From positions 32,001 through 96,000 of the forward strand of contig CAVQUB010000033.1 of the NCBI GenBank assembly GCA_963716725.1: DNA of 64,000 nucleotides, in the 5' to 3' direction. A program made the translations under genes and the position numbers. This DNA is from an uncultured delta proteobacterium (GTDB lineage: Bacteria > Myxococcota_A > Polyangia > Polyangiales > Polyangiaceae). The notes beneath the pieces were generated by a model. It did no database searches and had not been told where the DNA came from. It saw only the letters and a list, made by a program, of their open reading frames with translations. Of the stretch, positions 36,021 through 38,418 are shown one piece after another. Position 1 is the stretch's first letter. Each line of letters starts with the position of its first letter.

Positions 36021-36890
36021 ATGGCCCTGGGGCGCTCGCTATTCATCGCGCTGGCGATCCACGCCGGAGTCGCGCTCGCGGGTCGCCGCTGGGTCCCGGG
36101 GCCGGACGTCGTGCTCCCGCCCGCGCCGCCTGCGAGCTACGAGGTGAACGTCGTCGAGCTCGCGGCTGAGCCGAGGTCTGAGCGCCCGGAGGGCAGAGGG
36201 GCGACCGCAGCGGATCGGCGCGGGTCGCGGATCGCCATCGGGAAGTCGTGGGCTTCCGTGGGGGCGCCGACGGTCCTGCGCGGCACAGCGGGGGACGGCG
36301 TCGGGATCCCGGAGGCCGCGCCGATCGACGACGCCGTCCAGGACGCAGCGTCCGATCCGAAGCGTGCCGTCGATCTCGGCCTCGGGCGGATCTGGTTGAC
36401 ACCGTCGCTGCCCGATCGCCCGCGCGGTGAGTGGCAGTCCGGTGCACGGGCTGCCGGTGGGCTGGGTCAAGGGCTCGAAGATCGCGACCGCGCGCGCGGG
36501 CTCGGACGCGGCGGCGTGGTGGCTACCCTGGCGCGGAGCGCCGCCATCGCCGCCGGCCCGCAGACAGGGGAGGGCAGCTTTCTGGTGATCACGGATCGCG
36601 GTGGTCGAGTCGTGAGCGTGACGCTCGGCGAGTCCGTCGGCGCGGGTTGGGCCGATGTCGCCCGGGCGCTGCAGCGCGCGCTCGCGGCGAAGCGGCTACG
36701 CGTCCCGGTCGGAGCCAATGGGCTCAGCGTGCGAGTGCAGGTGCGCTCCAAGGTACAACTCCCGAGCGGAGCAGATCCGAATAGCCCGGCGCGCATTCGA
36801 GGGCCCGGAGCCGAGTTCGACGTGGCCGACATCGGCGCGCGCGCAACCCGAGTCGTGTCGGCGCAGATCACGGACGAACGGCTGCTCTAG
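36021..36890 (+). CDS. TonB-like membrane-anchored hypothetical protein
   Basis: N-terminal SLFIALAIHAG anchor (SxxxxxxH-like); C-terminal TDRGGRVVSV. Confidence 0.5.
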   Translation: MALGRSLFIALAIHAGVALAGRRWVPGPDVVLPPAPPASYEVNVVELAAEPRSERPEGRGATAADRRGSRIAIGKSWASVGAPTVLRGTAGDGVGIPEAAPIDDAVQDAASDPKRAVDLGLGRIWLTPSLPDRPRGEWQSGARAAGGLGQGLEDRDRARGLGRGGVVATLARSAAIAAGPQTGEGSFLVITDRGGRVVSVTLGESVGAGWADVARALQRALAAKRLRVPVGANGLSVRVQVRSKVQLPSGADPNSPARIRGPGAEFDVADIGARATRVVSAQITDERLL

Positions 36891-36955
36891 TGCCGCGCGG
36901 CAGAAGTTTCGCTGGTTTCTTTTCCGTGTGCGTGTCGTCGGTGTAGTGGGGTGAC

Positions 36956-37382
36956 ATGATCGACTACAGCGCGTTCGCGGGTCGAGCGCACGGTGGTCGT
37001 CCGACGGTTCCGCTCGCGCTGAGGGCTGAAGAGCGCGCGCGGATCGAGGAGGCGTTGCGACCCGCCAGGGCGGAGCAGCGGCTGGTTCGTCGGGCGCAGG
37101 CCGTGTTGATGATGGCGGACGGAGTGCCTGCGACGGACATCGCCCGGCTCCTCGGGGTGCACGTGCGCACGGTGGACGACTGGCGCAAGCGCTTCGACTG
37201 CGCGGCACCTAGCGAGAGACTGGCGGACGCCCCGCGCTCGGGACGGCCGCCCTCTCTCTCTCGGACACCGTAGCGGCTCGAGTAGAAGCACCGACGACCT
37301 CGCGGCGAGGATCGACGCGTACGTCGCGTGGTATCTGCAGACCGACCGACCCTTTCGCTGGTCGTACCGCCCCAAGTCGTGG
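36956..37382 (+). pseudogene. IS630 transposase remnant: HTH N-terminus joined to the C-terminal tail, DDE core deleted
   Basis: RRAQAVLMMADG..DIARLLGV..RTVDDWRKRF..LADAPRSGRP, then in another frame STDDLAARIDAYVAWY..RPFRWSYRPKSW. Confidence 0.8.
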
Positions 37383-37459
37383 GCCGAACCCAGAAAAATC
37401 CCCTCACTTTCTGCGAAGAAAGCCGCAACTGTTTCGGAGTGAGGCCCGACCACACGGGG

Positions 37460-37954
37460 ATGGCACAGGAAGGGCGAAAGCTCGGAAGATTTGGGGATGG
37501 GACGGACGAGGTGATCGGTGCGCTGATCGAGGTGCATCGGCATCTCGGTCCAGGGCTGATGGAATCCGCACATGAGGCCTGTCTATCTGCCGAGCTGTCC
37601 GAACGACGGCTCAAGTTCGAGCGGCAGCGACCGCTACCAATCCGCTTCAAAGGCGTACACCTTGACTGCGCCTATCGCCTCGACCTGGTCGTTGAAGCTC
37701 GTATCCTCCTGGAGCTCAAGGCGGTCGAGCGGCTGCTCCCGATTTACGAAGCGCAGGTCATCACCTATCTGCGCCTTTCGCGGTTGCCCGTCGGCCTGCT
37801 CGTCAACTTCAACGTGACCGCGCTCAGAAATGGCCTGCGGAGGCTAACGCCTGACCACCCCAAATCCTTCCGCTCTTCCGCCCTTCCTGTGAGAGCCCAA
37901 ATGAGCGCAGGTCTCAGGGGCGAATCCACTCGAACTTCGGCCGCGCGGCACTAG
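37460..37954 (+). CDS. GxxExxY family protein (PD-(D/E)XK nuclease superfamily)
   Basis: VHRHLGPGLMESAH, YRLDLVVE..ILLELKAV, AQVITYL..GLLVNF. Confidence 0.9.
   Translation: MAQEGRKLGRFGDGTDEVIGALIEVHRHLGPGLMESAHEACLSAELSERRLKFERQRPLPIRFKGVHLDCAYRLDLVVEARILLELKAVERLLPIYEAQVITYLRLSRLPVGLLVNFNVTALRNGLRRLTPDHPKSFRSSALPVRAQMSAGLRGESTRTSAARH
37464..37891. repeat. 33/34-bp inverted repeat pair enclosing the GxxExxY core
   Basis: Left arm 37464-37496 CACAGGAAGGGCGAAAGCTCGGAAGATTTGGGG; right arm 37858-37891, reverse complement CACAGGAAGGGCGGAAGAGCGGAAGGATTTGGGG. Confidence 0.85.
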
Positions 37955-37977
37955 CCGCAGTCCGATTTGATCGCGGC

Positions 37978-38418
37978 TCAGTCGTACTTCTTCAGCCGCT
38001 CGGCGATCTCGGTCCAGGCTCCCCCGAGCACGTTGTCCGCCATCGGATAGAGGATGCCCTCCTCTTTCACGTTGTGCTGCTGGATCAGCATCAGCAGGGT
38101 GTCACCTTGGTCGAGCGCCGCGCCCAGATCACCGCGATCGACCGCGGCGTTCATCTCCTCGAGCATGTGCTTCATCTGCGCGTGCTCCATGCGCATCACG
38201 TGGGTCGGCCCTCCGCCGTGCATGCCCGTCGCGTCCTCGAGGGCGGGGAAGAGGACCTCTTCTTCCATGGCGAAGTGGCGGCGCATCGCCTTGTCGAAGG
38301 TGGTCCAGCGCGCGCGGGCGGCGGGCAGATCGTCCGCGACTTCTTCGATCTGGGCCCAGAGTTCGTCGCAGCGTCGGTGATCGGGGATGAAGAGGGCTCC
38401 GGGACTGTCTGCGCTCAT
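37978..38418 (-). CDS. Hemerythrin domain protein
   Basis: DHRRCD, HFAMEEEVLFP, MRMEH, HNVKEEGILYPM. Confidence 0.9.
   Translation of the reverse strand: MSADSPGALFIPDHRRCDELWAQIEEVADDLPAARARWTTFDKAMRRHFAMEEEVLFPALEDATGMHGGGPTHVMRMEHAQMKHMLEEMNAAVDRGDLGAALDQGDTLLMLIQQHNVKEEGILYPMADNVLGGAWTEIAERLKKYD

Follow-up and report, generated by a model that had tools for sequence, protein, structure and literature searches.

In REP/RAYT systems, the gene of a Y1 HUH transposase is accompanied by inverted short repeats, and many dispersed gene-less doublets of these repeats occur elsewhere. Elements of the IS630 family of insertion sequences (IS) obey a CTAG/TA target rule; those that carry passenger genes combine IS630 ends and CTAG termini with a two-frame transposase (a helix-turn-helix part and a DDE part) and an extra gene between the ends, and they include non-autonomous deletion derivatives. 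A further kind of small gene-bearing unit is the intervening sequence (IVS) of 23S rRNA with its own open reading frame (ORF), as in Coxiella burnetii and Leptospira. In the excerpt of its description used here (PMC4990558), the Coxiella 23S IVS is 428 nt long and has a 28-bp terminal stem, within which RNase III cuts, and three tandem heptamers before the start of the S23p gene; the number of repeats varies among Coxiella strains, and the same excerpt treats the origin and purpose of gene-carrying rRNA intervening sequences as an open question. The function of the GxxExxY/PDDEXK_3 family is given as unknown in the part used of a 2012 survey of the PD-(D/E)XK superfamily (PMC3424549). In the literature on this family and on ORF-bearing IVS, no description was found of repeat-framed cassettes of the kind reported below.

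A GxxExxY Gene Framed by Inverted Arms

The window, a stretch of 64,000 nucleotides, belongs to a genome of 7.9 Mb in 35 contigs (84% complete); coordinates without a contig prefix refer to it (Table 1). A first-pass annotation had described, from the letters alone, two inverted arms bracketing a GxxExxY gene, and the gene is indeed there: its product scores 136.7 bits against TIGR04256 (cut-off 35) and 133.2 bits against PF13366, PDDEXK_3 (cut-off 22), the latter being its only Pfam match. E35, D75, E85 and K87, invariant in 48 GxxExxY sequences, are all present in the window protein. The motif tyrosine (Y38), conserved in at least 90% of the family alignment, is replaced in frame by a histidine in the window copy, where codon 37571 reads CAC; other IS copies have TAC (...ESAYE...). 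The best DNA run also has TAC (Tyr) at this position, at all depth. The AlphaFold2 model of the protein has a mean pLDDT of 87.2 and a pTM of 0.79; no match at E <= 0.001 was returned by Foldseek with this model, the best fold matches all being weak and mostly PD-(D/E)XK nucleases such as Cas4, Hjc and AddAB, and a PDB sequence search with the protein found no relative at E <= 1.

The arms are confirmed to be real and above chance: they match at the 30 of 34 positions first counted, as 22 of the first 25 without a gap and, past a 1-nt bulge, eight of eight, and the ungapped score of 16 exceeds all 200 flank shuffles (mean 7.2, maximum 13). A repeat search extends the pair to 44 nt (37457-37500 and 37855-37898, 77% complementary, with 354 nt between). 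The 8-nt period read into both arms is called by Tandem Repeats Finder in the right one (37866-37887, period 8, 2.8 copies, unit CCTTCCGC), whereas the more degenerate left arm received no call at a minimum score of 30. The proposed long stem can form, as the arms are paired in the minimum-energy and centroid structures with z = -4.2 as RNA and -4.3 as single-stranded DNA, and none of 100 shuffles folds as well as the arm-bearing sequence. Also as described, the arms are translated as low-information protein ends; both lie within the ORF yet outside the residues covered by TIGR04256, and the ends are the sole low-confidence parts of the AlphaFold2 model (pLDDT below 50 at residues 1-7 and 138-145).

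Table 1. Positions of the features in the window and of related genes and arrays in the same genome.
Feature	Position	Strand	Remarks
IS630-family insertion sequence	36887-37954	+	1068 bp; internally deleted non-autonomous copy; limits from blastn similarity
Left terminal inverted repeat of IS	36887-36909	+	CTAGTGCCGCGCGGCAGAAGTT...; same end in 25/25 copies; matches reverse complement of right end
Transposase orfA, helix-turn-helix part	36956-37273	+	105 aa; PF13384, PF13551, PF13518; NF033545 positions 1-57
Transposase orfB remnant	37272-37442	+	residues 243-298 (last 56); TGA stop 37440-37442; deletion junction near 37290
GxxExxY cassette	about 37394-37918	+	about 525 bp; stretch common to IS-free cassettes of sister genome and Phycisphaerales MAG
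Outer inverted repeat, decayed left copy	37394-37413	+	perfect 20-nt repeat in sister genome
GxxExxY ORF	37460-37954	+	164 aa; stop codon included; domain = residues 15-128, nt 37502-37843
Left arm	37464-37497	+	CACAGGAAGGGCGAAAGCTCGGAAGATTTGGGGA; three 8-nt units CACAGGAAG / GGCGAAAG / CTCGGAAG plus ATTTGGGG
Right arm	37858-37891	-	reverse complement = CACAGGAAGGGCGGAAGAGCGGAAGGATTTGGGG; three 8-nt units CACAGGAAG / GGCGGAAG / AGCGGAAG (complement) plus GATTTGGGG
Outer inverted repeat, decayed right copy	37899-37918	-	from four-way alignment
Right terminal inverted repeat of IS	37932-37954	-	final CTAG supplies TAG stop of GxxExxY ORF
Related-unit arrays without GxxExxY gene	C15:210302-210436, C18:147454-147530 (tandem sets), C2:243899, C2:245746, C10:105328, C32:339575
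TIGR02436 genes with downstream arrays	C11:376055-376354, C32:306170-306469, C32:307168-307467

The Carrier Is an IS630-Family Element

The setting of the cassette, which the first-pass annotation missed, is a multi-copy IS630 element. When 36500-38300 is compared with its own genome by blastn, similarity among the copies begins at 36887 and stops at 37954, and the flanks are unrelated at each of the 25 copies examined. The inverted termini read CTAGTGCCGCGCGGC(A/C)GAAGTT... at both ends, with CTAG first and last in all 25; a target duplication could be told apart from these CTAG ends only at an empty site. By length, the copies form four classes, of 1736, about 1255, about 1068 and about 644 bp. 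In the 1736-bp copies, the helix-turn-helix orfA is accompanied by an orfB of 298 aa in a different frame, whose full-length product is an IS630 transposase (NF033545, 181.5 bits, cut-off 100; a PF13358 DDE_3 match). In the window copy, of the 1068-bp class, orfA is followed by a remnant (37272-37439, which is C33:69272-69439 in contig coordinates) that is 91% identical to the end of orfB; as only orfA and the last 56 orfB residues are kept, this copy is a non-autonomous deletion derivative. The GxxExxY gene sits between the transposase stop and the right IS end.

The carrier is thus an ordinary IS630-family element, like others in its ends, its CTAG termini, its two-frame transposase, its extra gene and its deletion derivatives. 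Unlike an ordinary IS630 passenger, the gene here belongs to a repeat-framed cassette that is found IS-free in other genomes and that contributes the final 14 transposase codons together with the stop. No cassette-less copy of the IS was found in its own genome, and the nearest transposases in 20 relatives are merely 33-37% identical.

The 56 GxxExxY profile matches in the window's genome resolve into 33 gene loci, of which 32 have both arms, at a spacing of 385-414 nt, and all of these are IS-borne; the remaining paralog (C14:2117-2464) has no arms. The cassette has been spread to these 32 sites by the IS. The nuclease gene itself is often broken: a single common frameshift, which lies between the Asp and Glu-x-Lys motifs at profile position 67/68 (window ~37690-37700), is present in 21 of the 32 IS-borne copies, where a 9-nt stretch stands in place of the 8 nt of the window copy (C20:68158-68500 and C5:258061-258403 are examples). 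Four of the five copies of about 1736 bp carry it; the fifth (C7) is single-frame with a low score, 87.5 bits. Since the gene is frameshifted in 21 of 32 copies and the window copy has exchanged its motif tyrosine for histidine, the spread of the cassette in this genome is the work of the IS and not of the nuclease; the cassette would probably be passive cargo here, with the IS630 transposase doing the moving. The six copies of 644 bp (C1:35501-36140 and five others) have the 9-nt version together with an upstream duplication of about 13 nt, and are single-frame once more.

The idea that gene-less pairs of the arms might be dispersed through the genome did not survive, as a search with up to 5 mismatches in 26 nt returned none beside the 32 gene-enclosing pairs. 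A looser pattern finds arrays of the related unit CACAGGAAG-NCGGGAAG-NCGGGAAG without a GxxExxY gene at six further places in the same genome, one of which (C2:245746) folds back as a mini-hairpin around a loop of about 20 nt; these few arrays do not amount to a REPIN-like population. The locus therefore resembles REP/REPIN and RAYT systems in layout only, a small nuclease-type gene between inverted short repeats that recurs in many phyla. Unlike a RAYT, the enzyme has the PD-(D/E)XK and not the Y1 HUH fold, and unlike REP/REPIN sequences the arms have no gene-less doublets in this genome, where the mini-hairpin and the solo arrays are of a related unit.

Two independent deletions stop immediately 5' of the base of the arm stem (window 37452-37453): in the 644-bp IS class 37017 is joined to 37453, and in a contig from an RNA library 37374 is joined to about 37452. 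The stem base could be a hotspot of breakage or slippage.

A Cassette Independent of the Insertion Sequence

The GxxExxY gene and its arms together make up a self-contained cassette of about 525 bp in the last part of the IS630 element, with the arms as its inner inverted repeats. By blastn, window 37398-37918 is 79% identical to two loci (L033 and L037) of a same-genus genome, the sister genome, and window 37459-37905 is 81% identical to a locus (L050) of a Phycisphaerales MAG; an IS630 transposase of the window's type is absent from all 99 loci of other genomes (L031-L129). As the cassette occurs without the IS in both the same-genus genome and the MAG, it must have entered the IS. In the sister genome its limits coincide with a further, perfect inverted repeat of 20 nt, of which the window has decayed copies. 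It ends 36 bp inside the IS end, and the transposase's final 14 codons and stop lie in DNA homologous to the cassette, with NF033545 coverage of the full-length protein stopping at residue 261 of 298.

One cassette of the sister genome (L033:1331-2130) has a partial second copy of 160 nt behind it, and 28-nt direct repeats of GATACCCGAC units flank the two together; a congener of that genome has just ~12 nt between the same two genes. Taken as an empty site, this congener locus is about 780 nt shorter, but its borders are diverged and reveal neither clean limits nor a target duplication, which counts against the reading preferred below; beside the partial second cassette, further short repeats lie in the filled site. 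The second sister-genome locus has no usable orthologous flank for such a comparison.

The Same Frame in Other Phyla

A single-protein query against one genome per species gave 80 homologous loci at 53-88% protein identity, of which 78 are testable and two lie too near a contig end. In each, the 120 nt to the left of the gene were compared with the reverse complement of the 120 nt to its right, and 293 shifted placements at the same loci served as controls. The flanks form an inverted repeat above the 95th percentile of the controls in 61 of the 78 loci and above the control maximum in 36, with a mean score of 37.5 versus 16.6. Typically, each arm is a tandem run of three 8-9-nt units that have the 7 nt CRCNGAG as their core. 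Each side has two or more of these cores, in inverted orientation, in 56 of 78 loci and in none of the 293 controls; the 56 loci span 14 named phyla. The same frame, three tandem 7-9-nt units per side in inverted orientation, is thus built around GxxExxY genes in many phyla. Among the 50 loci classified by core type, median pairwise protein identity is 64%. The clade of the window uses a variant unit, ..GGAAG in the window and the Phycisphaerales MAG and ..GGGAG in the sister genome.

Four of the 78 loci (L077, L081, L100 and one other) have everted arrays, with the pyrimidine strand 5' of the gene and the usually outer 'TTCAC' prefix facing inward; such a gene may be flanked by two adjacent hairpin repeats. 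Identical arm pairs were seen in MAG contigs labelled Verrucomicrobia subdivision 3 (L053) and Methylomirabilota (L057), the result of either a recent inter-phylum transfer or a binning error.

Two Proposed Readings: Sites Read by Sequence or a Paired RNA Stem

Two explanations had been offered for the arms, a long stem like that of an rRNA IVS and iterated binding sites for the encoded protein; each gains some support. The reading preferred here, with a rough probability of 0.45, is that the units are read by sequence, as DNA-level iterons or terminal repeats. They would be cis-acting recognition sites, most likely recognised on DNA, and would tell a nuclease or recombination protein where the cassette begins and ends, in the manner of transposon terminal repeats, the cassette's own PD-(D/E)XK protein being the first candidate for the reader. 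The ability to fold into a long stem would then be a consequence of the inverted arrangement that may also be put to use. The strongest competitor, on balance doubtful, is an RNA stem for processing: the cassette would be transcribed within a host transcript, here the transposase mRNA, and its duplex of ~34-44 bp would be cut by host RNase III, which would release the cassette RNA and limit harm to the host transcript.

The pairing of the arms in both RNA folds is what such a stem predicts, as is the consensus fold of the window and three close relatives, in which a 33-pair arm stem is kept with two double changes from A-U to G-C and seven one-sided wobble-compatible changes. This stem also has about eight broken cells, and a single motif change, GGAAG to GGGAG in the sister genome, accounts for the two double changes; compensatory changes across homologs thus exist at 2 of 33 pairs but are limited to that genome. 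Of the mismatches in the arms of 61 loci, 250 in all, 54 would still allow G.U pairing in the sense RNA and 61 in the antisense RNA, and transversions, numbering 135, dominate; as there is no sense G.U excess, there is no sign of tolerance at the level of RNA. In the 50 canonical-core loci, units that would pair are identical at the variable core position with a frequency of 0.68; the figure is 0.65 for non-partners on opposite arms, 0.63 for units of one arm and 0.31 for units of different loci, so that partners are no more similar than non-partner units. For the spacer nucleotides, the figures are 0.50 versus 0.43. The six units of an element are kept alike as a set and not as pairs. The repeat core is conserved across 14 named phyla while the spacers vary, and a plain stem needs neither three periodic units nor a phylum-wide core with free spacers. 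Mismatch types, partner similarity and the conservation of core over spacer together favour units that are read by sequence, and iterated binding sites suit the comparative data better than the resemblance to rRNA IVS does. The solo arrays of a related unit, which have no partner arm, also speak for this reading.

The context of the cassettes points the other way, towards the RNA stem. The cassette runs in the direction of its neighbours in 34 of the 37 loci whose neighbours agree (by crude open-frame calls), which suggests that the transcription context matters for it, and within 36800-38050 no sigma-70-like promoter was found; nor does this interval match Rfam at E <= 1. Three RNA-labelled libraries were considered: one yielded two contigs of 151 nt, at depth 2, that cover 37260-37488 (with a 77-nt deletion variant) and 37505-37655, and another a single contig over 37756-37955 that is probably DNA; this material does not demonstrate transcription and is uninformative on ends or processing. 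On the side of the protein, alignment columns 33-34 track the core variant with a mutual information of 0.5-0.9; with the tree offering just 3 and 9 changes, and its supported branches 2 and 1 independent pairs, this covariation is inseparable from shared ancestry.

That the arrays have no present function, and are either a mutational by-product (of slippage and hairpin-templated repair that enlarge an inverted repeat) or the relic of an insertion, carried neutrally here by the IS, is improbable. Cargo decay in this genome, with its common frameshift and a histidine in place of a near-invariant tyrosine, fits such neutrality, as do the homogenisation of units within an element regardless of partner, the variable repeat number in the Coxiella excerpt and local rearrangements of the arms: the left arm is tripled with a 74-nt period in one copy of the same genome (C14:36309/36383/36457), and the right-arm region is doubled, 125 nt apart, in another (C4:85173/85298). 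A by-product would not, however, hold a 7-nt core in 56 of 78 loci and 14 named phyla at ~64% protein identity while the spacers drift, nor would it recur around a second gene family. That the arms matter as coding sequence for purine-rich N- and C-terminal peptides is very improbable. This reading draws on the window and its closest relatives, where an ATG is found 4 nt 5' of the left arm and the ORF continues across the right one. Over 61 loci, however, the stop codon precedes the right arm 28 times, falls within it 17 times and follows it 16 times; a 1-nt indel alters the C-terminal tail between window and relatives, and the ends are outside the family profile and predicted to be disordered. 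With start and stop codons in no fixed place relative to them, the arms are not kept for the peptides that they may encode.

Four-Helix-Bundle Genes and rRNA Intervening Sequences

The second gene family is that of the four-helix-bundle proteins of TIGR02436 ('23S rRNA intervening-sequence protein'). In 150 genomes of the same phylum, 29 loci of this family were found, of which 25 are testable; the flanks form inverted repeats above the control 95th percentile in 15 of the 25, with tandem 6-8-nt units of many sequences. The window's genome itself has three such genes with triple 9-nt units downstream, and their CGCAGAG or CGCGGAG cores are of the type that frames GxxExxY genes in other phyla. 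As the same packaging is found at 15 of 25 four-helix-bundle loci, the frame is not specific to GxxExxY, and a host factor acting on RNA would be the simpler explanation; packaging independent of the cargo is a point for the RNA stem. It also weakens the case for the encoded protein as putative binder, because an unrelated cargo family is packaged in the same way.

The likeness to ORF-bearing 23S IVS, as far as the excerpted description of these goes, is a substantive one in anatomy: both are units of ~430 nt with an inverted-repeat stem of ~28-44 bp and one small ORF, sense to the host transcript, and three tandem 7-8-nt repeats stand just before the start codon. This Coxiella anatomy, with the RNase III cut inside the stem, supports the RNA-stem reading by analogy. 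Unlike the 23S IVS, the cassette carries a PD-(D/E)XK GxxExxY protein in place of the four-helix S23p and has an IS630 element as host site in place of helix 45 of the 23S rRNA. The window's genome has only one 23S gene that was found (C8:110029-113031), and none of the 32 cassette copies is in it, which counts against the RNA stem; the resemblance to rRNA intervening sequences first proposed thus stands for the anatomy but not for the site. By analogy, the cassette may work like an ORF-bearing rRNA intervening sequence, yet it is no member of that class.

Implications

The arms are a candidate substrate for a protein of the GxxExxY/PDDEXK_3 family. A bolder extension, speculative and on present evidence unlikely, is that GxxExxY cassettes are undescribed autonomous mini mobile elements: a 115-aa PD-(D/E)XK nuclease would recognise its own three-iteron inverted arrays and move or home the cassette co-directionally into transcribed DNA, ORF-bearing rRNA intervening sequences would be a special case, and the cassette here would be a parasite of IS630, amplified 32-fold. 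If this is true, the window holds a mobile element nested in a mobile element. As the nesting in IS630 shows, a working nuclease is not required for the cassette to spread, and the 32 copies are natural replicates of the arms within one genome. The locus belongs to a much larger set of IVS look-alike cassettes that lie outside rRNA and carry a nuclease as cargo.
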